This document shows positions 988-32,229 of a stretch of DNA of 37,707 nt, piece after piece. The stretch spans positions 1 to 37,707 of the IMG/VR virus record IMGVR_UViG_3300045988_025481; one strand, written 5' to 3'. The translations under genes were made by a program, and so were the position numbers. The notes beneath the pieces were generated by a model. It saw nothing but the letters and a program-made list of their open reading frames with translations, was not told the DNA's origin and ran no database searches. The DNA is from a virus. Positions within the stretch are counted from its first letter, which is position 1. The number at the start of each line of letters is the position of its first letter.

Positions 988-2730
988 TTATTTAAATAGT
1001 TTCGAAACCTTTTTTAATATTTTTAAAATCAAAGCGATAATACGATTGATTCCATTTACATTAATTTTATCATTTGAATCGCTTGTATCGTTTGAATCAT
1101 CTTTTTTAGGATTGCTCAACTCATCTAAATATTGTGATACTAATAATTTAAAATCATCCCAACCTTCATCAAGAATCTTGTGTGGGCAATATTTATAATT
1201 ACCACTTGTCATCTTGTAATCTTGGTGCTTTTTTAAGCAATCAATACTCAATCCATATTTATACAATAGCTCAGATGCAAGTCTTGCTCCATTCTCTCTA
1301 GCTTTTTTCCATTCATCTTGTGAATCGTTATCATTATCCTTGGCGATTTCGATTTGGATACCTGTTCTATTACCAAATCCATATGCTCCATCACCTGTTG
1401 CAAATGCATTACGATTCAATGGTAATGATTCGATGATGTCTTTATCATCCACCGAGAAATGCCAAGATTTATATTCCTTCGAATTGTGCAATGCATTATT
1501 TAAAGCTCTAGCAGTTCCATTTGGTGTTGCCGAGTTATGGATGATAATCGCTTGAGGTTTATTCATTAAATAAGGGCATTTGTAAGGATACAATCTCTTA
1601 TTAATTAAATCAACGATAATACCGTCATGTTCAAGAACTTCATCAGTTTTATCCTTTCCTTCGTAATCTCCTTCATTAACCGATGTAAATCCATTTGTAT
1701 TTACAATGGGTTTCGAAGGGGTTGTGGGTGTTTCGGTAGGTGTTGTCGTTGGCTTTGAGTCGTTCGGAGCAGTAAATGTTGCCCACATTTGCGTTCTATC
1801 CTCTGTTGCAGATACGGCAACGAATACTTTTTTATCTCCGTCTTTGCCTACTACATATCTGTGCCCATTTCCTACATACTTCCAATAATAGCGAATTGAA
1901 TCACCAGTGTTGTATGTTTTGCAAACATCACCTTTTGGCGAATCGTAACGTGCTCTCACACCGTCTACCGTGAATGTAGCGATACCATCTTCTTGTGTTA
2001 GGGTAATTGATTCGGTAGGTTTTTGTTCTTCAATAGAAGTAAATGTTGCCCACGGTTCTGTACCTTGCTCATTTCCATTCACTGCCACGAAATAACGATA
2101 GCTTGCACCATCTGCTTGATGTTCAACCCATGAAATATATCTGTGCCCATTTCCTACATATTTTTGCGTGTATTCTAGCTTTGCCCCTTTTTTCAATGTT
2201 TCTGCTACGATTCCATTTGGTGTATCTCTTCTTTTCTGAATGTCATACATTAATGTAGCATAAGCGTGTTCATCTATTAATTTAGATTCTATATAATCGC
2301 TATTTTGAGTTTGATTTACTAAACATTTAGGTCTAAAGCCTGTATCATATGTGGCACTGTATGGAAATTTACATAAATTAAATGCTCCTCCTGCACCACC
2401 TTGATTTTGTCCTAAGAACCAACCATATTTTCCATCAATATCAGAATCAAAAATTGCAATATGCGAATATGGTGTAACTCCTGGCACTACTTTGAACACG
2501 ACAATATCACCGGGTTGATATACAGATACTTCAACACTGTTTTCCAAGATTCCATTTGTCTTTCTGTATAGCCAAATGTCTTTAGCGTATTTACTGACTG
2601 TACAACTAATTCTTGGGTATCCTAGTTTCTCATACCAATACATTGCACCATCCCAACATTGAGGGCCGTAAGCTCCATCAATGTCAATTCTTTTGCCTAA
2701 TACATCGTTTTTAAAACTTTGATAATCTAT
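988..2730 (-). CDS. endolysin: CHAP peptidase, two SH3b-like repeats, Thr/Pro linker, Amidase_2 (N-acetylmuramoyl-L-alanine amidase), cationic amphipathic C-terminal helix
   Basis: ORF 988..2643 extended in frame to ATA 2730..2728 (GGAGG plus 9 nt). The CHAP catalytic motif GAYGPQCWD lies upstream of the first ATG, and the CHAP His is in YSHIAIF. Repeats carry KYVGNGHRY...WATFT twice. Amidase_2 motifs are IIIHNSAT...WHFSVDD...GIQIEIA...YCPHK. Confidence 0.85.
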   Translation of the reverse strand: MDYQSFKNDVLGKRIDIDGAYGPQCWDGAMYWYEKLGYPRISCTVSKYAKDIWLYRKTNGILENSVEVSVYQPGDIVVFKVVPGVTPYSHIAIFDSDIDGKYGWFLGQNQGGAGGAFNLCKFPYSATYDTGFRPKCLVNQTQNSDYIESKLIDEHAYATLMYDIQKRRDTPNGIVAETLKKGAKLEYTQKYVGNGHRYISWVEHQADGASYRYFVAVNGNEQGTEPWATFTSIEEQKPTESITLTQEDGIATFTVDGVRARYDSPKGDVCKTYNTGDSIRYYWKYVGNGHRYVVGKDGDKKVFVAVSATEDRTQMWATFTAPNDSKPTTTPTETPTTPSKPIVNTNGFTSVNEGDYEGKDKTDEVLEHDGIIVDLINKRLYPYKCPYLMNKPQAIIIHNSATPNGTARALNNALHNSKEYKSWHFSVDDKDIIESLPLNRNAFATGDGAYGFGNRTGIQIEIAKDNDNDSQDEWKKARENGARLASELLYKYGLSIDCLKKHQDYKMTSGNYKYCPHKILDEGWDDFKLLVSQYLDELSNPKKDDSNDTSDSNDKINVNGINRIIALILKILKKVSKLFK

Positions 2731-5101: not shown

Positions 5102-5384
5102 AATTCTTGTCTAGATACGTTTCTTTTTCACTGCTTTTTCTTGGTGGTAAAACTGCGCTATACTTTTCTACTTCATCATACTTGTTCTTTATTCTTTTGA
5201 TGATTCTATTCACACTAGAAACACTCATATTTAATCTGTCGGCTTGTTCTCTGACTGTCCATCCGTATATTCTTGTTCTTAGAATCATTTCTTCATCTTT
5301 AGTTAATAAAGCTAGATTAATAAATTCTTCAAGAATAATCTTATTCCAAGGTACTTGATTCGTCATTGTCTTGTTCTTCGTCAA
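5100..5384 (-). CDS. sigma-70 region-4-like HTH regulator
   Basis: 94-aa ORF. EEMILRTRIYGWTVREQADRLNMSVSSVNRIIKRIKNKY resembles a region-4 HTH. It overlaps the holin 3' end by 44 nt. Confidence 0.5.
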   Translation of the reverse strand: MTKNKTMTNQVPWNKIILEEFINLALLTKDEEMILRTRIYGWTVREQADRLNMSVSSVNRIIKRIKNKYDEVEKYSAVLPPRKSSEKETYLDKN

Positions 5385-5856
5385 TAAGTTTATCTGCTAC
5401 TTCTAATCCTTTAGTTAATACTTTTGGTACATTGTAACCACATTGTAATAAATTCTCCATAACGCTACGAGATTCATTAATACATAGCGAAGCTAACACA
5501 AACCAACCTAGCAATGTAGACACATGGAAATCAATCCCTAGAATTTCTCCTACTTCTACTAAAAATGCACTGAATGTGAACGCAACCACAATCATAATCC
5601 AATAGCCTAGCTTTTTTAAAACACCGGTCCAACCTTTGTTGCTATTGATTTTATGAGCAATAGCCGACTTCATGCACCCTGTAATATAATCCACTACATT
5701 CATAAATAAGAAGAACGCAAATAAATACCAATGCTCGCCTAATACGTATGTTAATACGGCTACGGCAACACCACACATTGCATTAATCTTATCTAGAAAA
5801 AACATACTTCTTGCTATTTGCTTAAATCCTCCATTTTTATTTTCTATTAAATTCAC
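5341..5856 (-). CDS. holin (TcdE/phage_holin_4-type, toxin secretion/phage lysis family)
   Basis: Multi-TM ORF with DYITG...KK...INESRSVMEN motifs typical of that family. GTG 5856 sits inside the SD; ATA 5847 lies 8 nt after GGAG and is the better-placed start. Confidence 0.75.
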   Translation of the reverse strand: MNLIENKNGGFKQIARSMFFLDKINAMCGVAVAVLTYVLGEHWYLFAFFLFMNVVDYITGCMKSAIAHKINSNKGWTGVLKKLGYWIMIVVAFTFSAFLVEVGEILGIDFHVSTLLGWFVLASLCINESRSVMENLLQCGYNVPKVLTKGLEVADKLIDEEQDNDESSTLE

Positions 5857-6874: not shown

Positions 6875-7747
6875 CTATATACCTAAATACCTTTCGTTGT
6901 AGTAAACAGTGCAAGCTAGGTTCGTATCTCCATTATCTGCCGTATATCCTATGATATTCTCACCTAAATTAATAGTCATATCATTGAATGATGAAGTTCT
7001 ATCAACTTTGCCAATACAATTCACGCCATTCTTCTTTATTGAAATAGGTTCAGAAACTAAATCGATTTCTAATACATCACCATTGTGTAACGTATCTAAT
7101 ACACGAATATATTTATCTTTATTGAATAGTTTCGGATTTGTCACATCTCCAAATGCTTCAATGACGGCCCTGCAATATGTTTCTGTATCACCTTGATTAT
7201 CAATATAAATTTCTCTAGCGAATGTGAATGTTCCAAAGTTTACGCCTGTTTCCGGTATTTCGAAATTAAATGCTAAACCACCGCCGATTTCTGCAATATT
7301 CTTTGCAAAATCATCAAATGAAAGTAATAAAGGTTGCGTGCATAGAATCGTAAAATTAAGCTCTAAATCTTTGTAGATGTTAACAGTAGGCAAGCTATAC
7401 GCATATAAACGACCTCTGCAATACTTCTTTTCTCCCATGTACTCAACTATCACATCAAATACATGAGAATATTGGAAGAAGCGCCGTAGCTTCTCCCTTT
7501 CTTCTCTTTTTTCTTCTAGTGAACCTTTAAAGATAGCTTTCACGCTTCTTTCTTTCGTTGGAATACGTGAACCGATTAATCTAGCACCATTTCCAAATGC
7601 GTTGTCTTGCGTAGTGTATGAAGGTGCTACATAATCAAATCCATCTAAGCCATCATTTGAAGGAATCCTCCATCTTTTTTGGTTGTCAATTTCAAATTCT
7701 GTGCCATCATCCCTACGGACAATAACTCTTACTTTATTGATGTCTAT
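6875..7747 (-). CDS. distal tail protein (Dit)
   Basis: ORF 6875..7543 extends 68 codons upstream with no ATG/GTG/TTG, to ATA 7747..7745 (GGAGG plus 9 nt). The ATA overlaps the TMP stop as ATAG. Position directly after the TMP supports the call. Confidence 0.75.
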   Translation of the reverse strand: MDINKVRVIVRRDDGTEFEIDNQKRWRIPSNDGLDGFDYVAPSYTTQDNAFGNGARLIGSRIPTKERSVKAIFKGSLEEKREEREKLRRFFQYSHVFDVIVEYMGEKKYCRGRLYAYSLPTVNIYKDLELNFTILCTQPLLLSFDDFAKNIAEIGGGLAFNFEIPETGVNFGTFTFAREIYIDNQGDTETYCRAVIEAFGDVTNPKLFNKDKYIRVLDTLHNGDVLEIDLVSEPISIKKNGVNCIGKVDRTSSFNDMTINLGENIIGYTADNGDTNLACTVYYNERYLGI

Positions 7748-10323
7748 TGAATTACACCTCCATATCCATATCTTGCTTGCATACGTAACATTCTAGCGAT
7801 TTCATCCGGACTTTGAGCTTTATTGTAGAAGTTGATAGTCTGTCCATTGTTATTCGTTGTAACACTAGGCATAATTTGGACCATATCTTTTGCTACGGCA
7901 CGAATCCACGCTTTATTCTTTTCTAAAGGAACGACTGCTTCTGCTCCATTACCTTCTAACAATCCAATTTGACCGCGTTTCAATACACCACCACGCTCTA
8001 GTTTTGGAATCTTTCCAATGCTAACTCCGGGAATCTTATTGATGATACTGATTGCACCATTAATTCCACCGATAACACCATTTACCATTCCTTTTACACT
8101 TCCAACTAATGATTGCACTGCTCCTTCAATTCCATTGAATACACCATCTACAAAGCCTTTTAAACCGCTCCATGCATTCTGTATTCCATGTAGAACATTT
8201 GAAATCTTATTTCCTACTTTATCCATCACGATTTTTACTTTTGACCACACATCGTCAAATACATTTGAAATAGTATCTTTTACACCTGCGAAGCTAGAAT
8301 CAATTATATCAATCACATTTTGTACAATATTTCCAATATTATCGAATACACCTTTGATAACATTCCATATGCTTTCAAATATGCTTGAAATTGACTGGAA
8401 TAAACCACTTGCAAATTGAATGATTGCAGATACTACCTCACTTATCTTGCCCCAAATATTCGTTGCAACAGTTACGATTAAAGACCAAATATTAGATATG
8501 ATAGATGCAATGATTTGAACAATCGGCATGATGATAGACAATATTGTAGAAATTGCACTTCCAACATATGAAATCACCATACTAATGAACGAAATGATTC
8601 CACTTACAACACTTCCAACTATCGAAAGAATAGATGTGATTACAGGAATTAATCCAACTATGTTTGAAATCACCATCTTTATAATCGCTAGGATAGGTGG
8701 ACCAACCACGCTCAGAATCTTTTGTGCTTGGTTTACGATATTTTGAATAGCTTCAATAATCTTAGCTAATATATCTTTTGCAATAGGTTCAAGTGCAATC
8801 TTCATTTTGTCGATTGCGTCTTTTACCTTATCAAAAGCAGGAGCTAACACTTCAGAAACTTGGCTTGTGATTTTTGTGATTCCACTTGTATCAATCTTAC
8901 TTAATACATTTGAAATTACATCACCAACTTTAGCAAATCCTTGTTGAATACCTTGTATCGCTACTGTAATTAGTCCAATAATACCGGAAAGAATAGGAGT
9001 AATCGCTTCGCCTATTGGAGTAAATGAGTTTAAGAATGTACGCCCTAAGCCACTTAAAGCGTTCTTTAAACCACCATTTGCAATATCTTTAACCTTTTCC
9101 ATTGCTCCTTGTACATCTTTATATTTATTCCCTACTGTCGTTAAGGACTGAATGAATCCGGCGTTGAAATCTTCTCCCATTGTACCGAAAGCCGTTGCAG
9201 ATTTATTCAATTTTTCTTGTTCATTTGTAGTCTTTGAAATATCTTCTACAATCGCATTCACAACATCTTTTTGAGTTGCTCTTCCTTCTTGCCATGCCTT
9301 AAATACATCTTGTGTTTTGGTATCAAAACTATCTAAAGCTCCTTCAATAGTTCCATCAACTAACCTTGTGGTAACTTCGTTAATTGCGTCATTTACTTTG
9401 TCAAGGTTATAAGCTCCACCGTCTAAACCATTCTGCATTAATTGGAAGTATTCTTCTGCCGAATATCCTGCTTGCTTGAATTTACCGGAGTATTCTGAAA
9501 TGTTGTCGCCTAACTCATCTGATTTGTTTAAACCATTCTGAGCACCTGTAGCCATAAGGTCGAAAGCTTCTTGAGAAGTAATTCCGAACTGCTTCATTAA
9601 TTGTTGAGCACCTCTAAGAGTTTCGTTTTCGTCCATACCGAATGTGTCTCTTAATGTCAATAAATCCTCAGTTACATTCTTTAAATCAACATCACTTATG
9701 CCTTGCATTTGTTGCTTGACTCTGCCCATCATATCGGCAACATCTGAAACATCTTCACCGAAATTATTAGACCAAACATCACGAGCAATGCTTTTAAATT
9801 TGCTCATTTCATTGCTTGAAGCACCTGTTTGAGCTTGGAATTTAGCCATAGCGTCATCTAGCTCAACGGCTTGGTTAACACCTGTCTTAATTGCTAATGC
9901 CATCCCACCGATAGCTCCTGCTACGGCAGTAACGCCTACAACACCTCCAACGCCTAAACCTGTTAAGGTTTCAGTGATTGCAGAAGCTTCCGGACTAATA
10001 TTCTGAATCTTTCCTAATAGTCCATCAAATCCACCTTGAATTGATTCTAATGCACTGTTTCCTACTTGCTTAAATACATCAAATTTAGAACCTGTTTCTT
10101 GTGTTTCTGTTTGTGTATTTCTTTGCTCTTCGTTTAAATCTTTAAGTTTATCTTTAATCTTTGGCGGTGCTTTTGAACCATCAGAACCTAGCTTATCAAT
10201 CGCTTTTGAAGTATCTTTGATAGCATTTGTGGCTTCACTTGATACAACCTTTACAGATTTAATTCCATTCTCTAGACCACTTGTATCAATCTTTGTATCA
10301 AACTTTAATGTTCCGTCTGATAT
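7744..10323 (-). CDS. tape measure protein
   Basis: ORF 7744..9903 extends 140 codons upstream in frame with no canonical start. The first codon after an in-frame TGA is ATA 10323..10321, with AAAGGAGGTG upstream. Long helical/hydrophobic repeats are typical of TMPs. Confidence 0.85.
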   Translation of the reverse strand: MSDGTLKFDTKIDTSGLENGIKSVKVVSSEATNAIKDTSKAIDKLGSDGSKAPPKIKDKLKDLNEEQRNTQTETQETGSKFDVFKQVGNSALESIQGGFDGLLGKIQNISPEASAITETLTGLGVGGVVGVTAVAGAIGGMALAIKTGVNQAVELDDAMAKFQAQTGASSNEMSKFKSIARDVWSNNFGEDVSDVADMMGRVKQQMQGISDVDLKNVTEDLLTLRDTFGMDENETLRGAQQLMKQFGITSQEAFDLMATGAQNGLNKSDELGDNISEYSGKFKQAGYSAEEYFQLMQNGLDGGAYNLDKVNDAINEVTTRLVDGTIEGALDSFDTKTQDVFKAWQEGRATQKDVVNAIVEDISKTTNEQEKLNKSATAFGTMGEDFNAGFIQSLTTVGNKYKDVQGAMEKVKDIANGGLKNALSGLGRTFLNSFTPIGEAITPILSGIIGLITVAIQGIQQGFAKVGDVISNVLSKIDTSGITKITSQVSEVLAPAFDKVKDAIDKMKIALEPIAKDILAKIIEAIQNIVNQAQKILSVVGPPILAIIKMVISNIVGLIPVITSILSIVGSVVSGIISFISMVISYVGSAISTILSIIMPIVQIIASIISNIWSLIVTVATNIWGKISEVVSAIIQFASGLFQSISSIFESIWNVIKGVFDNIGNIVQNVIDIIDSSFAGVKDTISNVFDDVWSKVKIVMDKVGNKISNVLHGIQNAWSGLKGFVDGVFNGIEGAVQSLVGSVKGMVNGVIGGINGAISIINKIPGVSIGKIPKLERGGVLKRGQIGLLEGNGAEAVVPLEKNKAWIRAVAKDMVQIMPSVTTNNNGQTINFYNKAQSPDEIARMLRMQARYGYGGVIQ

Positions 10324-10343
10324 TCAATTTGCCACCTCCTTTT

Positions 10344-10907
10344 CTAAACATCAAAATATGAATCAAATTCATCTTTCATTTCTTGTTCCTCTATTGTTAA
10401 TTCAATTGGGAAAGACCACGCTTCTTTTGCTCTTTGATATGCTTTATCTTGTGTATCATTTTTTGAAGTTTTTTCATATCCTCTAACAATCTTTGCATAT
10501 CCCCACAATGTAGAATCACCAACGATATTATTCGCCAATGCTAAGAACTTATGCCAATGCATATCACATTCTGTTAAATCAATGCCGTAAAGTTGCATAA
10601 AAGCCGAATAAATATATTCCCCATCTTGCACATAGTCTAAAGTCTTAACGCCTGTAGAATCACTTCTAGGCGTACTAGAAGGGTTATATAAGAATCGTTC
10701 TAGCTCTTTTAAAATATGCCCATCTATGATAGGTGGTTCATATACAAATAAATAAGAACAATCTACTTCATCAATAACATGATTGTTGAATCGTTCTAAT
10801 TCTTCATAGAATCTTATCCACAAACGAAAATCTGTATTTAATAAAATAGGCTCGCCATCTAGCGATTGTATGCTATTTGGCAAGCCTTTTGTCCGTAAAT
10901 CAATCAT
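10344..10907 (-). CDS. tail assembly protein (Gp15-like), tentative
   Basis: 187-aa ORF between the chaperone-like gene and the TMP. ATGA overlaps the upstream stop. Confidence 0.5.
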   Translation of the reverse strand: MIDLRTKGLPNSIQSLDGEPILLNTDFRLWIRFYEELERFNNHVIDEVDCSYLFVYEPPIIDGHILKELERFLYNPSSTPRSDSTGVKTLDYVQDGEYIYSAFMQLYGIDLTECDMHWHKFLALANNIVGDSTLWGYAKIVRGYEKTSKNDTQDKAYQRAKEAWSFPIELTIEEQEMKDEFDSYFDV

Positions 10908-11284: not shown

Positions 11285-11791
11285 TTATACTTCTGATGTA
11301 CCTTCTGTAAATGTTACTGTTCCATCTGCTACCTTTGCAGTACCGACACGAATATCGCTTGCAAAGTTAATATTGAAGTTGATTTTTGAATCGACACCGC
11401 TTAATGTGTCAAAAATCAATTTAGCGTCAACTTCCCACGCTTTATAGCCTTTAGTTTTGTCTCCGTCAAACATAAATACAAGTAAAGCTTTTGTATTTAC
11501 TTCTTCATTGTTTGGTACGGATTTCATCATTTGTTCGTAAATGTATTCAAAGTCATCTTCACCTTTAATCATAGTCAAATCCTGTGAGATTTGAGGTGAA
11601 TAACTCTTTAATGATTCTGTTGGGTTCTTATCTGCGATAAAGTCATATGTTTCAGTTTCGCTATTAAATGCAATATCTAAAGTTGTAGACTTTTTAATTC
11701 GCTTGTATCCTGTTCCCATTTGTAAGAACAATCCAATCATATACTTTTTGACTGTCTGTCCTGTATTTACTTCAGTTCCTTGAGTTGCTAT
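11285..11791 (-). CDS. major tail protein
   Basis: ORF 11285..11740 extends 17 codons to ATA 11791..11789 (AAGGAGC plus 8 nt; TAATA overlap with the upstream stop). ATG 11740 has no SD. Position supports the call. Confidence 0.65.
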   Translation of the reverse strand: MATQGTEVNTGQTVKKYMIGLFLQMGTGYKRIKKSTTLDIAFNSETETYDFIADKNPTESLKSYSPQISQDLTMIKGEDDFEYIYEQMMKSVPNNEEVNTKALLVFMFDGDKTKGYKAWEVDAKLIFDTLSGVDSKINFNINFASDIRVGTAKVADGTVTFTEGTSEV

Positions 11792-13361: not shown

Positions 13362-13463
13362 CTATTTTTCATTTTGAGGTTTAGCTTCCTCTTTTGTTTT
13401 AGGTTTTCCTTTTTTAGGCTTTTCAACTTTAGAAGGATAACCCCAACCGATTTCCTTTGCCAT
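13362..13463 (-). CDS. 33-aa lysine-rich peptide (MAKEIGWGYPSKVEKPKKGKPKTKEEAKPQNEK)
   Basis: Hand-translated. TAATG overlaps the capsid gene stop. Confidence 0.35.
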   Translation of the reverse strand: MAKEIGWGYPSKVEKPKKGKPKTKEEAKPQNEK

Positions 13464-14332
13464 TACTTAGCACTAGCAGATAAATAAATACCTGCTACCT
13501 TATTTGCGTATACATCAACGATTCCATACTTACGATATTTCAAAACATCTGAATCTGATTCAATGTTATTGCTTGCGGGAATCACATTTGAAACAGTGTG
13601 CTTATCCCATTTCATAACGGCAGGTTTATGAACAATTAAGAAGTTGATTACGTGTCCATCTTCTGCCTTTTCGTATCCACCTTCTAACTCTGTGTCTTTT
13701 CCGCTCAACAATTTGATTTTTGTATAGAAACGACTAGCAGGTACAGGAACAACTTTTGCGAATCCTTGTAAAGCTTCACGAGATTTGTAAGTGTCCAACG
13801 CCTTAACGCCATTTAATAATGTAGGTGTAGCATACAAGATACGTTGTTCGCTAGGAACTTCATCTTCATCCATTTTAGTAGTTGCCGTTAATAATGCGCT
13901 CAAGAACTCTTCTGAAGTTGTATAATCTTCGGCAACTGTTGTGATTCCTGTTGTGCCTGCAATCTTAGCGAATGTGTAAGCGTCTGCTTCCGGCGCAACC
14001 TTTGTACGCATTAATTCTGCTCCTGCCATACCGAATGCAATGTTCATTGATTCTGCGTTATCTTGTGTATCAACTGAGATTTTAGTACCTCGGTCATAGT
14101 CGAATGTAGCAGTTTTCCATTCTAACTTAACTGAGTTACCTGTATAACCACTGTTTCTATCGTAGTTTCCTAAACCTTTAACAGAAATTTGTGGATAGAT
14201 GATTTCTTTTGCGTTTGCTCCTGCTCGTACCATTGTAGCGTCTGCATTTAAATCACCTGTAACTGAAGCTAACTTATATACCTCATCCAAATTTGAGACA
14301 TACGTTTTAGCTAATGCAATTTCATTTGGTAT
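13463..14332 (-). CDS. major capsid protein
   Basis: ORF 13463..14290 extends 14 codons to ATA 14332..14330 (AAGGAGG plus 9 nt). The extension restores a typical ...Y.S.LDEVYK N-terminus. The gene follows the scaffold gene. Confidence 0.8.
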   Translation of the reverse strand: MPNEIALAKTYVSNLDEVYKLASVTGDLNADATMVRAGANAKEIIYPQISVKGLGNYDRNSGYTGNSVKLEWKTATFDYDRGTKISVDTQDNAESMNIAFGMAGAELMRTKVAPEADAYTFAKIAGTTGITTVAEDYTTSEEFLSALLTATTKMDEDEVPSEQRILYATPTLLNGVKALDTYKSREALQGFAKVVPVPASRFYTKIKLLSGKDTELEGGYEKAEDGHVINFLIVHKPAVMKWDKHTVSNVIPASNNIESDSDVLKYRKYGIVDVYANKVAGIYLSASAK

Positions 14333-17885: not shown

Positions 17886-18449
17886 CTAACCCCACATAGT
17901 ATTTAAATCATTTGTAGTAATCGCAGTTAATTCTGACTTCTTAACATACGCCGATAAATCAATGTCTGTATTACCAATCTTTTCGTATGTCTTTGTCTCT
18001 GAAAGCCAAATATACTCATCATAGATATCTTGTGTTCCATGTGAATGTGCTACCAAATAAATTACACCATTTGAACCTGTAGCAGGTAAGCTCGTTACCT
18101 TTTCATATCTAATAGATGCAATGTTTCCTACTGCCGAATTAATCAACGATTGTACTTGTGATTGCGTTTGGAATCCATTGTCATTTGTTAATTGTGATAC
18201 CTTTGTAGGCACTGTAACATCCACGGCTTTTGAGCTTGGCGTTAATTTCGTACCATTTACCTTTACAGATTCAATCACATTCACTTGAGCACCACTTGCG
18301 ATACCACTTAATTTTTGCTTTTCTTCGCTTGTGTAGTCATTTGTTGATAAGCCTTTACCACTTACGGCATCAACTTTCCCACCTAACGCCGTTTTAATCT
18401 TACTGATTAAGAGTGTCAATCCACTCTTATCTAAATATTCAATAGCTAT
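17886..18449 (-). CDS. tail-fibre-like protein
   Basis: ORF 17886..18419 extends 10 codons to ATA 18449..18447 (TAGGAGG plus 8 nt). GKGLSTNDYTSEEKQKL and SQLTNDNGFQT are typical fibre repeats. Confidence 0.6.
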   Translation of the reverse strand: MAIEYLDKSGLTLLISKIKTALGGKVDAVSGKGLSTNDYTSEEKQKLSGIASGAQVNVIESVKVNGTKLTPSSKAVDVTVPTKVSQLTNDNGFQTQSQVQSLINSAVGNIASIRYEKVTSLPATGSNGVIYLVAHSHGTQDIYDEYIWLSETKTYEKIGNTDIDLSAYVKKSELTAITTNDLNTMWG

Positions 18450-18761: not shown

Positions 18762-19057
18762 GTAATCACTTCCTTATTCAATACTCTATATACCTTTGTT
18801 GTCTTGACAGGAGAAGCAACAGCAACTCCTCCTTTTGTAATCATTCTTAATTGAATATTACAAGTACCCTCTTTGAAATTGAGCGTTTCTTCTTGACTTA
18901 ACAACACTGAAATAACATTTCCTTCAATGTCTAAATCACTTGATTCTTTTTTTAAGATATATCCGTTCTGTTCAAATACCACATAGATATTCTGCATTTC
19001 ATTTAAATCAATATCGTTTATTGTGATTTGAATTGTTGGCGTAGTTCCTTGTCTCAT
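18758..19057 (-). CDS. small structural-module protein
   Basis: ORF 18758..19078. The best start is ATG 19057 (AAGGTG plus 5 nt; ATGA overlap): MRQGTTPTIQITI... Confidence 0.5.
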   Translation of the reverse strand: MRQGTTPTIQITINDIDLNEMQNIYVVFEQNGYILKKESSDLDIEGNVISVLLSQEETLNFKEGTCNIQLRMITKGGVAVASPVKTTKVYRVLNKEVIT

Positions 19058-19863
19058 GATTTCACCTTGTAAGTCCAATCTTTGCCTACTTCACCCGACT
19101 CAACTTCATACGCCCAATCGGCTAGCATTTCATGACCGTTCTCATCTACCAGTGTTCCATCTTCTGTTAATAGAATCGTAGTGAAATGGTTATTCATAAG
19201 CATTTGTTCTACATTTGCAATTCGGTTCATTAACTTACCTGCGGTATTTGAATCCAACGTATCTTTTACGCTTGCGAACCATTCATTGAATTCATTTTCA
19301 TTTGCACTCATTTCAGATTGATTCTGCTCTTTTACTTCTTTGAATAATTCGGTCATTTGTGTAAATAAATCTAATGTTTCAACACTCTTTATGGCATTTG
19401 TAACTACTCCACAACGTGTTGAATCTAACCTTGTATCAGTGATGTTTGAGCCTTTGATTTCACTTGCGTTTCCTTCCACTGTTACCGTAGCTAATACCAT
19501 ATCATAAATAGAACCGCTTCTTGTGATTCCATCGTTGGTGTCGCTTGCTAATAAGGTAATGTTTCTATATGTGTCATTGTCATTCAATCTAAGAATAATA
19601 TTGTAGCTTTTAGTAGCGTTATTCTTTTCTAATGTGATGGTTTCGTCGTCTTTCTGCCAATAGAATGCTCCGTTAATATTTGCTCGTCCTGCCTTAACTG
19701 TAAGTGTTAAGCCTTGAGCCTTTTCAACTCTCAAATGGTCTGAACTAGAATCATCTATGAATACGCCATTTGTAAAGTAGCTTGAGAATAGCTTTCTGAA
19801 AGCGTCATATAAGACTAATCTATCACCATTTCGTGAGACAAATGGAAAATATGTAGTTGCTAT
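19054..19863 (-). CDS. fibre/baseplate-like structural protein
   Basis: ORF 19054..19734 extends 43 codons with no canonical start, to ATA 19863..19861 (GAGGGGGA plus 9 nt). The ATA overlaps the portal stop as ATAG. The FPFVSRNGDR...ITDTRLDSTRCGVV pattern resembles phage fibre proteins. Confidence 0.6.
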   Translation of the reverse strand: MATTYFPFVSRNGDRLVLYDAFRKLFSSYFTNGVFIDDSSSDHLRVEKAQGLTLTVKAGRANINGAFYWQKDDETITLEKNNATKSYNIILRLNDNDTYRNITLLASDTNDGITRSGSIYDMVLATVTVEGNASEIKGSNITDTRLDSTRCGVVTNAIKSVETLDLFTQMTELFKEVKEQNQSEMSANENEFNEWFASVKDTLDSNTAGKLMNRIANVEQMLMNNHFTTILLTEDGTLVDENGHEMLADWAYEVESGEVGKDWTYKVKS

Positions 19864-21263
19864 TCTTCGTCATCCCCCTCTCCATCATCTTGAATTTCTT
19901 CATTCAACAATTCCGTTGCTTCTTCTTCAGTGAAGCCGTATTGCTTCATGAAATACATAATCTTTAATCTTGGAATATCAAATGTTAATGCGTCATTTCT
20001 TAACGCTTGTGCCGTGCTTTGCTTATCCTCGATATATGTATCATCATAATCAATAGCAATATCTAATGAATTGATATTAAGCTTTCTGCCTTGTGTCAAT
20101 TCGTAGAAGTATGCAATAGCTTGAATAATGTCTTGAATATATGCAGTAGATTCTTTACGTTGTGAGTTTACTTCCTTCATAGCGTCTTGATTCTCACCAA
20201 TATATTCTGTAGCCGTCACAATTCTTCCACTTTCAAAGGTGTATTTCTTTGTACCAAATCCAAACATCATTGATAAGATACTTAATGCAGTTTCTAGTGA
20301 TTGCACAACTTCCGCCGTTCTTACTGTTGGATTGTATTCTTGCCATAAAGCTTTTTCTTCCGGAAGCTTGTCTCTACCTAACTGAACAAATATCTTTTTC
20401 ATTTGTGGATTCATCTTAATATTTCCATCCTTGTCTTTCTGCATTAATGCTTCATTCACAAGAACAATTTTATCAGACTTCAACAAATCACGATTCCACA
20501 TTGTCATTGTTAAATCAATTGTTTTCAAAGGAGCAATTGCACTCCAAATCTTCGGCAAGCCGTACCCTTGCATTTGTAAGTTGTTGACCTTTGCATTTCT
20601 CATAATTGCAAACGGCTTAACCACATCTAATTGAACTATCTGAGCACGCTCTTTTATTTCTTCGCCTGTATCTTTAAAGTAATGTGTTTCTGCAATATAT
20701 CTTTCGTCTTGTCCTTTTAAGAACATGACCATCACATATACTTTTTTCAACTTCTCATAATTTACTCCAACGAAAGCTACTTCCACAATTTCATCATTGA
20801 TAACAGTTAATGGAAGGATATTCATTGAATCACAATAGTTGATTCTTATTTCCCCTCCACTGAATGTACCATCTTCGTAAATCTCGGCATTTGATACCGT
20901 TACATAAGCTCCTACTGTACCGTTTGCAGACATTTGCTCAACTTGTTTCCTATACATTACATCAAACCTATTCTTCGTTAGAATGTCTGAAATAATATCA
21001 TTTGTTGTACTGTCCTCTGTTGCGTTTATATCTAGGATTTCAATAAGGTTTGCGTCATCCTCGCATAAACGCTTTGCAAAGTCTGTTTTATCTAGCGTGT
21101 ATTCCTCGTTGTTCAACGTGTATGCCGTATGAAATTCTGTTTCGGTATTCGTGTACCACTTATTACACAATTCAATAATCTCAATTGCGTTTGTGTCTAC
21201 ATAATACCCTCTGTCGTTTAGGTAATTCTGAAACCACGGTCTACGTGTGTTAGATGTTTCTAT
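19860..21263 (-). CDS. portal protein (SPP1 Gp6-like)
   Basis: ORF 19860..21170 extends 31 codons to ATA 21263..21261 (AAGGAGG plus 6 nt), two codons after an in-frame TAA. Its size and position after TerL support the call. Confidence 0.8.
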   Translation of the reverse strand: METSNTRRPWFQNYLNDRGYYVDTNAIEIIELCNKWYTNTETEFHTAYTLNNEEYTLDKTDFAKRLCEDDANLIEILDINATEDSTTNDIISDILTKNRFDVMYRKQVEQMSANGTVGAYVTVSNAEIYEDGTFSGGEIRINYCDSMNILPLTVINDEIVEVAFVGVNYEKLKKVYVMVMFLKGQDERYIAETHYFKDTGEEIKERAQIVQLDVVKPFAIMRNAKVNNLQMQGYGLPKIWSAIAPLKTIDLTMTMWNRDLLKSDKIVLVNEALMQKDKDGNIKMNPQMKKIFVQLGRDKLPEEKALWQEYNPTVRTAEVVQSLETALSILSMMFGFGTKKYTFESGRIVTATEYIGENQDAMKEVNSQRKESTAYIQDIIQAIAYFYELTQGRKLNINSLDIAIDYDDTYIEDKQSTAQALRNDALTFDIPRLKIMYFMKQYGFTEEEATELLNEEIQDDGEGDDEE

Positions 21264-21266
21264 TTC

Positions 21267-22604
21267 TTACCTCCTTAAATCTATATATCCACTATGGGTT
21301 ATAAATGTGTAGCAGAACGAATCCCAATCATCATTGATATTGTTTACGTTCTCATCTTTCGGAATGTCTTTCTTTTCATCCCATACCAATTCGCTCAATG
21401 CATTTATTAAGTTCTTACAATGTTCTTCTATCTTCAATCTACCTGTAACAAGTAAGCTATCAACTGTTATAGGACGGTCCGTTAGCTCATTCTTCTTAAC
21501 CGGTGCAATTATACTACCGTCCAATCCTTCGGCGTAGAAATAAGCTCTAAGCGTGTTTATGAGTGTGTTAGAAGCACTGTCCGGAAATATCCATTCTACA
21601 TATCCGTAACATTCAATACAACGCTTATAGAATCTTACAAATGCTTTGCAGAACTTTGTTGCGTATATGGAATTAGATTTAGCCATGTCTCCTTCATCAA
21701 GTGCCCACATATAATCCCAATCATTTGTAAACCCTGTTAAGTGCCATGAATATTTCGAGCCATTGTCTCCAAAATCAACGCCAATAATTAAATGACTGAA
21801 CCTTTTCCCTTCTTCCTTCATCTTTTCTTTTAGACTCTGATATTTGAATAGGTAAGGCTTGCAGTTATTGGCAAAATAAGGAAAGACTAGACCTTCGGCA
21901 ACCATTCTTTCCCCTAAAATATCTCGCTTGTACCATACTGAATTCTTGTCATATTTGTTTTGGATTTCTTCGATTCTTTCTTGGCTCATTGTAGCATTGT
22001 CAAAGATGTTGAAGTGCTCATATCTGTACCAATCTAACCCCATAAATTTATCTATGTAATTCTTATAGATGTCTGCGTTTGGGTTTGATGGGTTTAAATC
22101 CCATAATGTAAATGGATGTACACTTGCAATCTGTCTTGCCATCGCTACCTTGATAAAGCTTGTTCTAGAATCATCACAATCGTAATGCTCATTTATTTCG
22201 GTCGCTATCCATCCACCATATGAGTTACCTAATATGCTCTTATATGAATCGGACTTTCCACCGCCTGTAAATATAACTATCTTTTCGCCTGTCTTTGTTT
22301 GGACAAATAGTGCTTCGTTCGATTTGTATTTACCCCAACGACACCGCCCACGAAAGATATGTTCTAAGCCGAAACCATTGCAATCGCCTATGTTTAATTT
22401 CGCATTTGGTAAGCTTGACCCACTCGCTAAATGTATTTTATCTTCGCATGTTTCTAAATACATTGAAAAGATTATGCAGTGGTCAATCGTTTTGCCACTT
22501 CGTACCGCTCCTTCTGCTACACTTTGTTTGTAATTTAGGGCGGTCTTAATATAATTCTTATGTTTATCTGAAAATTTCCCCCAAGGAATCGTTCTAGTCA
22601 TCAT
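21267..22604 (-). CDS. terL: terminase large subunit
   Basis: 445-aa ORF with Walker A EGAVRSGKT, PBSX/Terminase_3-like. The ATG overlaps the TerS stop. Confidence 0.9.
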   Translation of the reverse strand: MMTRTIPWGKFSDKHKNYIKTALNYKQSVAEGAVRSGKTIDHCIIFSMYLETCEDKIHLASGSSLPNAKLNIGDCNGFGLEHIFRGRCRWGKYKSNEALFVQTKTGEKIVIFTGGGKSDSYKSILGNSYGGWIATEINEHYDCDDSRTSFIKVAMARQIASVHPFTLWDLNPSNPNADIYKNYIDKFMGLDWYRYEHFNIFDNATMSQERIEEIQNKYDKNSVWYKRDILGERMVAEGLVFPYFANNCKPYLFKYQSLKEKMKEEGKRFSHLIIGVDFGDNGSKYSWHLTGFTNDWDYMWALDEGDMAKSNSIYATKFCKAFVRFYKRCIECYGYVEWIFPDSASNTLINTLRAYFYAEGLDGSIIAPVKKNELTDRPITVDSLLVTGRLKIEEHCKNLINALSELVWDEKKDIPKDENVNNINDDWDSFCYTFITHSGYIDLRR

Positions 22605-22942
22605 TTTAATAAATCTGCCAAAGGTGTTAAGTCCTCAATCTCATGTGTCATTGTCTGCTCAACCTTTTCGCTCTGTCCAAGCATTTGTTTACCTAACCAA
22701 ATAAGCATGGTCGTATTCCCTTTTGACGCTTTGTCAAATTGCATACGTCTTAAACTTCTTTTTGAGTGGCTTATACCTTTTTTATATGTCTGACAAAACT
22801 TTCTATTTCTTAATAATGTTCTTACCGAACATCCTAGGAAATCTGCAATTTCTTCTTGAGTACATCCAATAGAAGCAAGCTTTTCAACTGCTTCATAATC
22901 AATCTTTATTCTTGGGCGTCCTCCTGCGTGTTTCTCTGCTAT
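22601..22942 (-). CDS. terS: terminase small subunit (HTH)
   Basis: Not in the ORF track. The frame is open from TAG 22957 to TGA 22601 and encodes (M)AEKHAGGRPRIKIDYEAVEKLASIGCTQEEIADFLGCSVRTL... The first ATG is 66 codons in. ATA 22942..22940 lies 6 nt after a G7 run. Confidence 0.7.
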   Translation of the reverse strand: MAEKHAGGRPRIKIDYEAVEKLASIGCTQEEIADFLGCSVRTLLRNRKFCQTYKKGISHSKRSLRRMQFDKASKGNTTMLIWLGKQMLGQSEKVEQTMTHEIEDLTPLADLLK

Positions 22943-23094
22943 TTTAATCCCCCCCTATAACAATCATATTGATTCAATTGCTTTTTAAGCCTTTGTAATC
23001 TTTTTCTTAAATCTCTTTTTCTATATTCTGATGTCGTGTTTTCTAATTCTTCTTCAACGCTTTTCATTTGGCGTAAATGTTCTTCTCTAGACAT
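22939..23094 (-). CDS. 51-aa coiled-coil ORF ending at the G7 tract
   Basis: Hand-translated: MSREEHLRQMKSVEEELENTTSEYRKRDLRKRLQRLKKQLNQYDCYRGGLK. It overlaps the radical SAM stop. It could fuse to TerS by a -1 shift on the G7 run. Confidence 0.35.
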   Translation of the reverse strand: MSREEHLRQMKSVEEELENTTSEYRKRDLRKRLQRLKKQLNQYDCYRGGLK

Positions 23095-24394
23095 GTCTTG
23101 CTTCTTCTGTTTCAAGTTCTGTAATCTCCTCTGTTCTTTTTAAGAATGTTACTGAATTATCATATTCGTAAATGATGTCATTGTTTTCATCAAATCCTAC
23201 AGGCTTTAGAACCTTTTCAAAAATCTTATAAGGTGATTGTCCTGCTTTTGGTGAATTCCATAAATAATGAAGATAATCTTTCATTGTCATTCCTTTGAAT
23301 TTTGCTCTATTCTCTGATGAATTAGTGTTGAACCCAATAGCTTTATTAAATTGAAAATCTAAGAAATACATATCCTTTTCAATATCTTTCCAATGTACTC
23401 TTCCATGTTTCTTTGCAATTTGTAAAGCGCCACTAAAATTTCCTCTTGAGTAATCCCAATTCTTGTCTAATGCGCAACAACAACAATTATTTGAGCATTC
23501 TTTAAAGTGTGCGTCGGATACATAGAATCGCATACCTAATTCATCACATAGCTCTTTCATCTTTTGAATGTATTTAGCCTTTACTTTTCTGTTAAGTCTT
23601 AAATATCCACTTCCATTTGAATGTTTTCTATAGAAATCTACAATATCAAATCCTGCACATTCACTAATCACATCATAATGCTCCTTAGCTTGTTTAATAG
23701 AACGCATTTCTAAGCAAAAGAACTCCGTAGTAACTGCCGTTGCTCCTGCCTTTTTGGCTTCTCTAATTAAATCTAGATAGGTTTTATCTGATACTCCTAC
23801 AATAAATGGACGCAATCTTAAAGTTGCACCACCTTTAGATAGTTCAGTATATTTTTTCATTGCTTCAAGTCTTTTTCTTGGACTTGGCACACCTACTTCG
23901 ATTTTTCTTGCGTCCTCTTCATCTAGCGTGATGATACTAAACTTAACATTCCAATTGTCTGCGCCTTTGAACAATTCTTGATATTTAGGGTCATTAAATA
24001 CCCATGCCGATTTCGTACTAAAACAAATAGGATAGTTAATAGATTTCAAATACTTAAGCATTTCATAGGTTTTGCCATATTTCTTTTCGTATCCGTCGAA
24101 TTGGTCTGATAATCCACCATATTGAATAGGACGTCTGTCTTTAATGTATTTATAGAATTGTGATTTTGTATCTTCTCCACTGAAAATCTTTTTGCATTTC
24201 TCAACATTGATACATTTCACATCTTTATTAAGATATGCTTCTTTACTTGCACCAATACCTCTTTGATATTGGCTAAAACAATAAACGCACCCAAATGAAC
24301 AATTGGAATATGTATCAAATGTCACCGGTAATGAGCAATCTGCGATTTCTCCTGTCCATCTCGGTGATTGATATGTCTCACTGATTTTATTCAC
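23087..24394 (-). CDS. radical SAM enzyme (SplB/COG1533-like), substrate unknown
   Basis: 435-aa ORF with the CX3CX2C motif CSFGCVYC near the N-terminus and a second Cys cluster CSNNCCCC. GTG start after GGAGGATATAAG. Confidence 0.75.
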   Translation of the reverse strand: MNKISETYQSPRWTGEIADCSLPVTFDTYSNCSFGCVYCFSQYQRGIGASKEAYLNKDVKCINVEKCKKIFSGEDTKSQFYKYIKDRRPIQYGGLSDQFDGYEKKYGKTYEMLKYLKSINYPICFSTKSAWVFNDPKYQELFKGADNWNVKFSIITLDEEDARKIEVGVPSPRKRLEAMKKYTELSKGGATLRLRPFIVGVSDKTYLDLIREAKKAGATAVTTEFFCLEMRSIKQAKEHYDVISECAGFDIVDFYRKHSNGSGYLRLNRKVKAKYIQKMKELCDELGMRFYVSDAHFKECSNNCCCCALDKNWDYSRGNFSGALQIAKKHGRVHWKDIEKDMYFLDFQFNKAIGFNTNSSENRAKFKGMTMKDYLHYLWNSPKAGQSPYKIFEKVLKPVGFDENNDIIYEYDNSVTFLKRTEEITELETEEARHV

Positions 24395-24395
24395 C

Positions 24396-25157
24396 TTATA
24401 TCCTCCATTTTCTTTTCAACAATACTGTTCTATCTTTTTTTGTTACCATATCCGGATATTTCTTTACTAGGCGTCTAAGCCATAGTTCTTGTTCTCCTCT
24501 TTGGTATCTGTCATACATTCCGCCTTTTTCCTTTCCCATTAAAGATTTATTTGGCACAATGTTATTTGCTCTAGCTATGATATACCCTTGCCTAATCATT
24601 CTTAGATTCAATTCATAATCCTCTAACATATCCCATTTCTCATCAAATTTGATTTCTTCACTTTTAATAACAAAACACAATCCACCTTGTACGAGTGTAT
24701 TGAATGAATATGTTTCACCTTTCTTAACATAGCTAGCTATATTCATATTATTGGTTGTGGGTAGACATCCCATGAAGTGAATATTGTTCTTTTGCATAAA
24801 TGAGAATACCTCATTAAATGTCTTATCCAATTCAGTGATTTTTTTCTGCGCTCCACATTTATTTCCTTGCTTTTCTTCCCATTTCCTAAAATCTCTGATG
24901 TCATCATCTAGTAAGATGATTTTTGCCCCATTTTCAAAATAATTTAGAATGTTATTTCTATTCGAAGCTACGTTATTTCCACGCCTAGTAATGATTTGAG
25001 CTTGACTTCCTAATGTTTCAACATAAGTTTTGAAATCATTTGAATCATTTAAGCTAATAACAATTCTTTCATCTTCAATTCCACATTCTTTTAGTGCGTA
25101 ATACGTTTTACATTTTGGTCTATGGTAACTAGCTATTGCATAATAGATGTTATTCAT
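24396..25157 (-). CDS. GT-A-type glycosyltransferase-like protein
   Basis: 253-aa ORF with a Rossmann-like N-terminus and the DXD motif ILLDDDIRD. Confidence 0.5.
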   Translation of the reverse strand: MNNIYYAIASYHRPKCKTYYALKECGIEDERIVISLNDSNDFKTYVETLGSQAQIITRRGNNVASNRNNILNYFENGAKIILLDDDIRDFRKWEEKQGNKCGAQKKITELDKTFNEVFSFMQKNNIHFMGCLPTTNNMNIASYVKKGETYSFNTLVQGGLCFVIKSEEIKFDEKWDMLEDYELNLRMIRQGYIIARANNIVPNKSLMGKEKGGMYDRYQRGEQELWLRRLVKKYPDMVTKKDRTVLLKRKWRI

Positions 25158-30583: not shown

Positions 30584-31324
30584 CTACGCTCTTAATATTT
30601 CTTTCCTTACTCGTTCCATTTCTTTATGTACATCTGCATACGATTGATTGCTTTCTTGTGCATAGAATTTAGAATCAAGTTTTACAGGATTGTTCTTATT
30701 TCTTTTTGTCCATTCATCATGTACCCACTTCTGAATCACTAGTGAATGGTTCTTGTATTTTTTTCCACTTGTTTCAATGTACTCATCTAATATCTTTATA
30801 TGTTCATCTAATGAATCACCATATAAATCTAATAGGTGTGTGTGTTCTTTATCTGTAAGTAACACGTGTGAATATTCTCCGTATTTATGTTTGTGCGTAC
30901 ATACATTAATATTATTTTTATTTAATTCATTTTTAGTTGAATTATTATTTAATTTAATAGGGTTTAGATTTTCTAATTTTAGATTTTCTATTTTTAGAAT
31001 TTCTATTTTTAGATTTTCTAAATTCCGAGGATTGTCTATTAATGTATATTGCCAATCAACAATTAAATTACCTTCTCTAATAGGTTCACGAATTAAATAT
31101 CCTTTATTCATTAATTCTTTTAACCCGGAACGAACACTTGATATTCCATCTGTAGCTAATGCTTTAATACTGTTTTCCTTAAAGTCCCAATTATCCGGAA
31201 GGCTTAACATTTGGCAAAACAAGCCTTTTGCTTTATAGGATAGTTCTCTATCGTGAAATATTTCATTGTTAACGTGTGTATACCCACTTTGTAGGCTTTT
31301 CTTTAGTTCTGCTATTCTAATCAC
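30584..31324 (-). CDS. replication initiator / replisome organizer (wHTH N-terminus, DnaD-like C-terminus)
   Basis: 246-aa ORF. The N-terminal wHTH has the SVRSGLKELMNKGYLIR pattern. Iterons are embedded mid-gene. Confidence 0.65.
   Translation of the reverse strand: MIRIAELKKSLQSGYTHVNNEIFHDRELSYKAKGLFCQMLSLPDNWDFKENSIKALATDGISSVRSGLKELMNKGYLIREPIREGNLIVDWQYTLIDNPRNLENLKIEILKIENLKLENLNPIKLNNNSTKNELNKNNINVCTHKHKYGEYSHVLLTDKEHTHLLDLYGDSLDEHIKILDEYIETSGKKYKNHSLVIQKWVHDEWTKRNKNNPVKLDSKFYAQESNQSYADVHKEMERVRKEILRA
30963..31022. repeat. four tandem 15-bp iterons (TTTAGATTTTCTAAT-like); putative origin
   Basis: Units are at 30963, 30978, 30993 and 31008, next to a very AT-rich stretch (30905..30960). 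They are translated as ENLKIEILKIENLKLENL. Confidence 0.7.
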
Positions 31325-31661
31325 CCCCTAGAATTTCTACCTCTATTCTTGGATTTTGTTTATCTGTAAATACTGAATGATTCACTTGATTAATGTATTT
31401 CCTTGAATCATCCTCAAGTATTCCTGTTCTAACTAATGAATCTTGAATGAATTTAGTTGCGAATGTTACGTTATCAACATCACGCCTTGAATTCGGTTCA
31501 TACCAATTAATATTTAATTTAATTGGGTAGTTCTTAACTTCGTAAATTTCACCAAAGTTTACTGCCTGTAAGATATAAGCCATAACTAATCGCTCATTCT
31601 TTTTCTTCATTTCTGCTCCTTTGTAGCGGTTCGTTCTGCAAGCATTAATATATTCATTCAA
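31317..31661 (-). CDS. rusA: RusA-family Holliday junction resolvase
   Basis: 114-aa ORF. RRDVDNVTFATKFIQDSLVRTGILEDD matches the RusA catalytic Asp pattern. Confidence 0.7.
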   Translation of the reverse strand: MNEYINACRTNRYKGAEMKKKNERLVMAYILQAVNFGEIYEVKNYPIKLNINWYEPNSRRDVDNVTFATKFIQDSLVRTGILEDDSRKYINQVNHSVFTDKQNPRIEVEILGGD

Positions 31662-31677
31662 TCCATCTAGTTTTCCT

Positions 31678-32229
31678 TTAATTACAAACTTTATTTTCTT
31701 CCACCTTGATTCCTTTATCTAAATAATATTGGGTACTAATTCCTAATTGTTCTGCATAATCTAATATGCAATCAATTAAGACTCCCATTTGTTTTGTGTC
31801 CATTTGTGAGCTACCCAAAAACAATCTACAATTCACAAATTCATTTCCATTGTCTCTTATCTCAGTGCCCAATATTTGAACTGCTCTAACTCCATGAGCT
31901 TGAGCCAACGAATCAACACCATCTTTCAAAACTGAAACATATGTATATAACGCTTTTGCCATTCTCAAGAATTCGCAATACATATCCCATGTATCGTTGT
32001 AGCTTGCGTTTTCGTTTTCACTTATTTCCTTGATTAATGCCCACATAAGCCGATTCTGATTGTTAGTACGTAAATGCTTAACAGAATCTATAATCACGCT
32101 ATATGCCCCTTTTTCGAGTGTCTGAGCGTATGATTCGTATATTGGCTCAGTCAATTCAAATGTTATTTCTAGGTTTCCATCTTCATTTCTTGATTTTCTG
32201 ATGAAATTACCTATTAATTTTGTTTTCAA
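31678..32229 (-). CDS. hypothetical protein (possible NinB/HNHc_6-like, weak)
   Basis: 183-aa ORF. RTNNQNRLMWALIKEIS resembles the QN..lw motif of those families. Confidence 0.4.
   Translation of the reverse strand: MKTKLIGNFIRKSRNEDGNLEITFELTEPIYESYAQTLEKGAYSVIIDSVKHLRTNNQNRLMWALIKEISENENASYNDTWDMYCEFLRMAKALYTYVSVLKDGVDSLAQAHGVRAVQILGTEIRDNGNEFVNCRLFLGSSQMDTKQMGVLIDCILDYAEQLGISTQYYLDKGIKVEENKVCN

Follow-up and report, generated by a model that had tools for sequence, protein, structure and literature searches.

The 37,707-nucleotide viral record IMGVR_UViG_3300045988_025481 from IMG/VR, analysed over its whole length and referred to below as the window, carries on its minus strand a tail module with a gene for a tape measure protein (TMP), the 5' part of which has no ATG, GTG or TTG codon. 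The gene was identified by a match to PF10145 (PhageMin_Tail) over residues 185-380 (E 1.8e-23, 83.9 bits versus a curated cut-off of 33.2) and by its placement between a Gp15-family gene upstream (PF06854) and the gene for the distal tail protein Dit downstream (SPP1_Dit, PF22768), a tail-module position that fits a TMP. From an ATA codon at 10323 to the TAG at 7746-7744 the frame is open for 859 codons, and its earliest in-frame ATG, GTG or TTG is the ATG at 9903, leaving 420 nucleotides (nt; 140 codons) free of a canonical start. We infer from comparison of related sequences that TMP translation very probably starts at the ATA, which would give an 859-residue protein.

Read 5' to 3' on the minus strand, the start region runs from the TAG of the Gp15-family gene (10346-10344) through a 10-nt extended Shine-Dalgarno (SD) sequence, AAAGGAGGTG (10342-10333), and a GCAAA spacer to TTG, TGA and ATA, the sequence downstream of the TAG being AAAAGGAGGTGGCAAATTGA-ATA-TCA-GAC-GGA. 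The TAG lies 20 nt before the ATA. In the TMP frame a TGA (10326-10324) is followed directly by the ATA (10323-10321) and then by TCA GAC GGA. Since 16 other open frames of the window terminate in TGA, this one is a stop codon here, and because it directly precedes the ATA no in-frame translation is possible upstream of that codon. The duplex of AAAGGAGGTG with the anti-SD has an energy of -17.3 kcal/mol, the top value in the window, and the SD is identical in 47 of the 48 sequences compared below, with a single G>T in the remaining one. An in-frame GTG (10335-10333) sits within this SD, and a TTG (10327-10325) lies in the -1 frame, 7 nt after the GGAGG core, and opens a short open reading frame (ORF) that stops at the TGA at 10300-10298. 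The SD of the ATG at 9903 is weak (-7.8 kcal/mol). Reading of the minus strand thus bears out what the sequence-only reading of this DNA had described, namely a frame opening with TGA and then ATA, 420 nt open without ATG, GTG or TTG, and an SD upstream; the GTG and the out-of-frame TTG are additional to that description. RNA folding around the TMP start gave no significant structure (z = -0.95), so that a structure masking the TTG or exposing the ATA is unsupported, and a promoter and terminator scan near the start found nothing that exceeded shuffled controls.

The upstream 140 codons are coding. Protein-based searches recovered relatives as six contigs from Logan, ENA and NCBI, 34 IMG/VR contigs (85-98% amino-acid identity) and prophage copies in host contigs; Megablast searches of the phage collection with the TMP region and with 25 kb of the window gave no match. 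The codons were compared in 48 sequences (42 distinct) from independent assemblies. The 48 sequences contain no indels in this segment, and the 152 variable sites fall 33, 19 and 100 at codon positions 1, 2 and 3. The ratio of nonsynonymous to synonymous polymorphism (pN/pS) for codons 2-140 is 0.16 in the TMP frame versus 2.9 and 1.5 in the other two frames. The absence of indels, the third-position bias and the low pN/pS together argue that codons 1-140 are translated in the TMP frame, and on these alignments the segment is under purifying selection in that frame only. In 25 of the 48 sequences the segment holds no canonical start at all.

The ATA itself is present in all 40 relatives aligned by BLAST, a conservation that is informative because synonymous diversity in the region is high (pS = 0.26 across codons 1-140). 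All related contigs and host-embedded prophage copies carry the arrangement AGGAGGTGG-(5 nt)-TTGA-ATA-(TCA/TCG/GCA)-GAY-GGA, within which the 5-nt spacer before TTGA varies freely (GCAAA, GCACA, GCAGA, GAACA) and the changes right after the ATA, TCA>TCG and GAC>GAT, are synonymous in the TMP frame.

The position of the start is also supported by homology with more distant proteins. Right after the ATA, the residues SDGTLKFDTKIDTSG form part of an N-terminal motif, DG[ST]LKFDTKIDT, which in the form M-x(1-3)-DG[ST]LKFDTKIDT is common to about 40 distant TMPs from Lachnospiraceae-type genomes and IMG/VR; these agree with the earlier description of the segment as a typical TMP N-terminus. A scan of genome contigs yielded distant TMPs only, and these were used for start-position homology. 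In the TMPs with the motif an ATG or TTG precedes the DG by one to three codons, in alignment with the ATA at 10323, as ATG GCA GAT GGA (MADGSLKFDTKIDT; MADG) or TTG GCT TAY GAT. The distant TMPs aligned here (e.g. P0009 and P0010) have no Met at the position of Met141. Homologues lacking the region had been named as evidence that would speak against translation of it; those found carry N-terminal extensions before the PhageMin_Tail domain that are equal or greater in length and begin MA(x)DG. An unrelated phage, IMGVR_UViG_3300042934_000280 (L084; 39% GC), has AAAGGGGTGAGTTAA-ATA-GCT-TAT-GAT-GGT where homologues have TTG-GCT-TAY-GAT, which suggests from the alignment that ATA as a TMP start arose more than once. 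In that phage the TMP ATA stands at position 9992 behind AAAGGGGTGA, right after an in-frame TAA; other ATA or ATT candidates in the locus lie directly before an ATG or are weakly supported.

The TMP is one of a set. By listing the start-less 5' stretches of all open frames, reading them and scoring SD pairing, we found that an ATA 6-11 nt after a strong SD opens about 12 of the roughly 60 window genes (about 20%) and about one third of the late module (Table 1). The TMP locus had been put forward as the cleanest single case of ATA initiation; the ATA start is supported computationally, but it is one of about a dozen in the window. The 11 other apparent ATA starts stand 6-10 nt after a strong SD, a position in which ATT and ATC are not used; public gene calls either shorten these genes or place the start at a GTG that belongs to the SD.

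Table 1. Features of the TMP start region, its neighbours and the other genes of the window with an assigned or probable ATA start.
Feature	Position	Strand	Remarks
Full TMP ORF	7744..10323	minus	859 residues plus TAG stop; PF10145 PhageMin_Tail
N-terminal TMP codons (140) without canonical start	9904..10323	minus	contain DGTLKFDTKIDT motif and hydrophobic GLGVGGVVGVTAVAGAIGG segment
Proposed TMP initiation codon, ATA	10321..10323	minus	11 nt after GGAGG, 9 nt after end of extended SD
In-frame TGA closing TMP frame	10324..10326	minus	present in all relatives
Extended SD AAAGGAGGTG	10333..10342	minus	GGAGG core 10339-10335; complementary to 16S rRNA 3' end
Out-of-frame TTG (10327-10325) and 9-codon ORF MNIRRNIKV*	10298..10327	minus	overlaps TMP start
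ATG (Met141)	9901..9903	minus	first in-frame canonical codon; start in public gene calls (719 residues); read as internal Met
Gp15-family gene (putative tail assembly protein)	10344..10907	minus	PF06854, E 5e-17; ordinary ATG start
Dit (distal tail protein)	6875..7747	minus	ATA 7747-7745, overlaps TMP stop as ATAG; ATA in 32/32 relatives
Putative major tail protein	11285..11791	minus	ATA 11791; named by gene position; PHROG family without annotated function
Major head protein	13463..14332	minus	ATA 14332; ATA in 32/32 relatives
Structural gene of unknown role	17886..18449	minus	ATA 18449
Head protein	19054..19863	minus	ATA 19863, overlaps portal stop as ATAG; ATA in 26/26 relatives
Portal protein	19860..21263	minus	ATA 21263; phrog_533, aligned from residue 22; ATA in 5/5 relatives
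Small-terminase-like helix-turn-helix (HTH) protein	22601..22942	minus	ATA 22942; first ATG is codon 67
CHAP + amidase endolysin	988..2730	minus	ATA 2730; ATA in 22/22 relatives
Holin-family gene	5341..5847	minus	probable ATA 5847; listed GTG 5856 inside SD
Early HTH_36 protein	30584..31315	minus	probable ATA 31315; listed GTG 31324 inside SD
RusA-like gene	31317..31694	minus	probable ATA 31694

Pfam left the N-termini of most of the ATA genes unresolved; they were resolved with PHROG profiles and CHAP domains from the PDB. The major head protein matches phrog_422 with its residues 3-288 spanning positions 3-294 of the 297 in the profile, and the alignment of the putative major tail protein to phrog_3099 begins at residue 10. 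In the head protein starting at 19863, phrog_1220 aligns from residue 3, and the first canonical start would cut 43 residues. The endolysin carries its CHAP motif GPQCWD, with the QC position conserved in solved CHAP domains, upstream of the first ATG, and PDB CHAP domains align from its residue 9. Weak HTH matches in the small-terminase-like protein (residues 17-47, below the Pfam curated cut-offs) likewise lie upstream of the first ATG. Two of the starts overlap the stop of the preceding gene as ATAG on the minus strand (7744-7747 and 19860-19863), the ATA counterpart of the ATGA overlap, which suggests translational coupling. The base preceding the ATA is A in all 12 window starts, compared with about 60% of canonical starts by hand count, and the base following it is G in nine of the 12. 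This pattern may reflect a context requirement for AUA, or it may be no more than A-rich spacers and Ala, Asp or Glu second codons.

Immediately upstream of the TMP, the Gp15-family gene is preceded by a 120-residue gene whose TGA overlaps the Gp15 ATG as ATGA (10904-10907, minus strand); the two sit where a tail assembly chaperone pair would be.

Three start sites of the phage group have ATA in some members and ATG in others, with the codon at an unchanged nucleotide position and the surrounding sequence almost identical. Among relatives, site 18449 has 13 ATA and five ATG at the same position and context, site 17635 has 27 ATG and two ATA, and site 11791 has 33 ATA and one ATG at the same position. 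The TMP ATA, unlike these three, never switches to ATG (40 of 40 relatives). To measure how specific the signal is, each long open frame was scored for its first candidate start behind a strong SD. The window gave 13 ATA, one ATT and no ATC, and 35 close relatives gave 256 ATA, seven ATT and two ATC alongside 344 ATG, whereas 42 unrelated TMP loci gave 36 ATA, 23 ATT and 68 ATC with 39 CTG, that is, no excess of ATA over ATT, ATC or CTG. Because ATA stays at noise level in the unrelated loci, the excess is specific both to ATA and to this phage group.

The trait appears to belong to the phage. Exact-sequence matching puts the window on a 44.7-kb ENA/IMG contig, one protein of which is identical to WP_337618913.1 from Holdemanella sp., which makes this genus the probable host of what is a gut prophage. 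Our sample of host start codons consists of 24 genes flanking prophages at four distinct integration sites; all 24 start with ATG behind an SD, and none has an ATA candidate. Comparison of the late-module starts (10 ATA, 22 canonical) with the first 18 of the host genes gives p = 0.009 by Fisher's exact test, and as far as the host was sampled the ATA starts would be a phage trait and not a host trait. With up to about 1,400 members in the clusters that include proteins of this contig, the phage group is a common one. Integration was observed at at least four host sites (the cca/SseB-PmbA-TldD, DeoR/PTS, cysteine/methionine and methyltransferase/L17 loci). In some related contigs (L086, L088) the endolysin is followed directly by the integrase, an order that implies circular or excised genomes; others (L087, L089, L090, L092) are integrated. 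No tRNA gene was found in the window, leaving a phage-encoded AUA-reading initiator tRNA unsupported, and no translation factor appeared among the family searches run and the listed Pfam matches, which left many small ORFs unsearched. A 253-residue protein (24396-25157, minus strand) matches phrog_842, 'beta-glucosyl-HMC-alpha-glucosyltransferase' (E 7e-20), and the phage may accordingly glycosylate its own DNA or another substrate; for the 435-residue neighbour (23087-24394), the sole match is to a PHROG without known function.

Four other readings of the TMP start were weighed against initiation at the ATA. Ribosomes could begin at the TTG (10327-10325), which stands at a typical start spacing of 7 nt from GGAGG and is invariant in 34 IMG/VR relatives, and enter the TMP frame by a +1 shift either within the first codons or at a prfB-like GTT TGA (10303-10298), the TGA of the TTG frame being preceded by GTT-T. 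We consider this highly unlikely. TTG-AAT-A offers no slippery re-pairing, and a shift at GTT TGA would lose DGTLKF, which is under purifying selection and common to distant TMPs. From relative to relative the peptide of the TTG frame differs (R>W, R>G), L028 lacks the TGA that ends it, and pN/pS in this frame is 2.9; the ATA start of the unrelated phage L084 has no TTG nearby, and the 11 other ATA starts of the window require no frameshift. The prfB system shares with this locus a short ORF ending in TGA after a strong SD, but the geometry and the conservation pattern differ; a programmed +1 frameshift of that kind was rejected, since about 29 nt separate the SD from the GTT TGA downstream of it where about 3 nt are required. 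Translation from the in-frame GTG (10335-10333) through the TGA (10326-10324), read as Trp under genetic code 4 or by leaky read-through, would produce an N-terminus MANWISDG, and public gene calls for two relatives do list such a protein (P0001 on L001, 175-1443, and P0006 on L002, 626-1270). The DNA of both has TGA at this place, and the two entries are artefactual database proteins with TGA translated as Trp; apparently the short, low-GC contigs led the gene caller to adopt code 4. The GTG is itself part of the SD, lacks a ribosome-binding site of its own and is lost in L037 (GTT), and the two codons between it and the TGA differ non-synonymously among relatives (GCA AAT > GAA CAT). As TGA terminates 16 of the 64 open frames in the window and splits no gene, code 4 does not apply, and the efficiency of UGA read-through is expected to be very low, so that this reading is barely credible.

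The ATG at 9903 is the first canonical start and is used by most public gene calls, including the 719-residue annotation in IMG and ENA; under this reading the 420 nt before it would either go untranslated or be a remnant in decay. Very little probability attaches to this reading in view of the pN/pS of 0.16, the third-position bias, the freedom from indels and stops in 48 sequences and the widespread N-terminal motif of codons 1-140. Furthermore, the ATG has a weak SD and lies inside a hydrophobic segment, and a start there would open a non-coding gap of 440 nt in an operon whose genes are closely packed. Finally, the ATA might be an artefact of sequencing, assembly or DNA modification at a real ATG, modified DNA being conceivable given that one window protein matches a PHROG with a DNA glucosyltransferase annotation. 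The chance of this is close to negligible. All 40 BLAST-compared relatives keep the ATA, which argues against a sequencing error; the same ATA recurs across different studies, in over 40 assemblies made independently, and in host-embedded prophage copies, ATGs in similar contexts are read normally, and ATA and ATG differ between relatives as ordinary polymorphisms. TadA edits a tRNA-like UACG loop, and A-to-I editing of AUA to AUI was set aside, the sites here (A-AUA-G/N) being unlike such a loop.

Initiation at AUA has precedents in bacteria. In Staphylococcus aureus, AUA starts of infC, ccpN and citZ are directed by extended SDs and work at 10-30% of AUG efficiency in a medium-dependent manner, and the AUA/AUU set with extended SD motifs comprises infC, ccpN, citZ and cvfC1 (PMC13009471). 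In Listeria, where non-canonical starts are used by fewer than 0.3% of core genes, start efficiency falls in the order ATG > ATA > ATT (PMC13068326). The present phage resembles the S. aureus case in its low-GC Bacillota host and in AUA codons that stand behind unusually long SDs, are conserved and are missed by canonical gene callers; by analogy, attenuated and condition-sensitive initiation by the normal initiator tRNA is likely here as well. Those features of the S. aureus starts that can be read from sequence are found at the TMP, with coding conservation upstream of the first canonical codon, an extended SD, an AUA within SD range and aligned homologue starts. The extent differs, for S. 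aureus uses AUA in a few regulatory or metabolic host genes, whereas here it would open about 20% of phage genes, including those for capsid, tail, portal, TMP and endolysin. The autoregulation of infC, which encodes initiation factor 3 (IF3), through an AUU or AUA start likewise involves an AUN codon whose use depends on IF3 discrimination, but its autoregulatory logic is not applicable to a structural protein such as the TMP. The closest phage parallel is orf28 of Streptococcus thermophilus phage TP-J34, which has an AUU start confirmed by re-sequencing with terS primers (PMC3952083). TP-J34 is also a temperate siphovirus of a Gram-positive host with an AUN start on a late gene; there, however, one gene and AUU are concerned, as opposed to ATA exclusively, in about 12 genes, and with conservation across 40 or more related phages. 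Mitochondria, too, use AUA routinely as a start, but there it doubles as a Met sense codon read by a modified tRNA-Met, for which the window, devoid of tRNA genes, gives no indication. Our literature search, which was incomplete in coverage, found no report of phage-wide ATA starts. The mechanism of AUA initiation is already known, and ATA is an allowed start in translation table 11; what appears to be new is its conserved use throughout a phage, at about 20% of genes.

In the mechanism that we propose for the TMP, the 30S subunit would be held by the extended SD, and the ordinary initiator fMet-tRNA would pair with AUA as a near-cognate codon with a third-position mismatch, the ATG at 9903 being decoded as an internal methionine. 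By analogy with S. aureus, the efficiency of AUA would be lowered to roughly 10-30% of that of AUG, and competition from the better-spaced, out-of-frame TTG would lower TMP output further. A phage tail requires only few TMP copies. The TTG, together with the TTGA that contains it, is invariant in 34 IMG/VR relatives though three of the five preceding spacer bases vary and pS is 0.26, and this conserved TTG may act as a decoy start competing with the ATA.

Several points weigh against initiation at the ATA. At 11 nt from GGAGG, the TMP ATA has the longest spacing of all the window ATA starts, and the TTG stands in another frame at the usually preferred 7 nt, so that most ribosomes might start there. 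The SD energy of the ATA-start genes is -13.0 versus -8.8 kcal/mol for canonical-start genes, a difference that is partly circular, since SD strength helped to pick those starts. A weak start codon is also odd where hundreds of copies of a protein are required, as they are of the major capsid and major tail proteins; this implies either that AUA is efficient in this host or that late-infection conditions or another factor assist.

A further idea, which we regard as speculative and rather unlikely, is that the ATA starts constitute a phage-encoded translational switch, poorly read in the lysogen or the uninfected cell and efficient only in lytic growth, with the TTG decoy setting a low TMP copy number. 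In such a switch a flood of late mRNAs with strong SDs would titrate IF3, or a phage product would relax start-codon discrimination, and the genes covered would be those for major capsid, major tail, portal, TMP, Dit, endolysin and holin.

The finding bears directly on annotation. The gene calls that IMG, ENA and Logan give for this phage group, a common one in the human gut, are in error for a dozen genes: the TMP is listed with 719 or 839 residues or as a code-4 artefact beginning MANW, Dit with 187 to 288 residues versus 290 from the ATA, the endolysin without its CHAP catalytic cysteine and the head protein short by 43 residues. Tools restricted to ATG, GTG and TTG starts will repeat these errors, and tail lengths estimated from the called TMP length come out about 16% too short. 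For the biology of the group, an AUA start on the most abundant virion proteins challenges the view of AUA as merely attenuating or accidental. Natural ATA and ATG alleles of the same start sites exist side by side, so that the effect of one versus the other on expression is directly measurable. If the ATA starts do form a translational switch, leaky expression in the lysogen would be prevented and virion production would be tied to host physiology.

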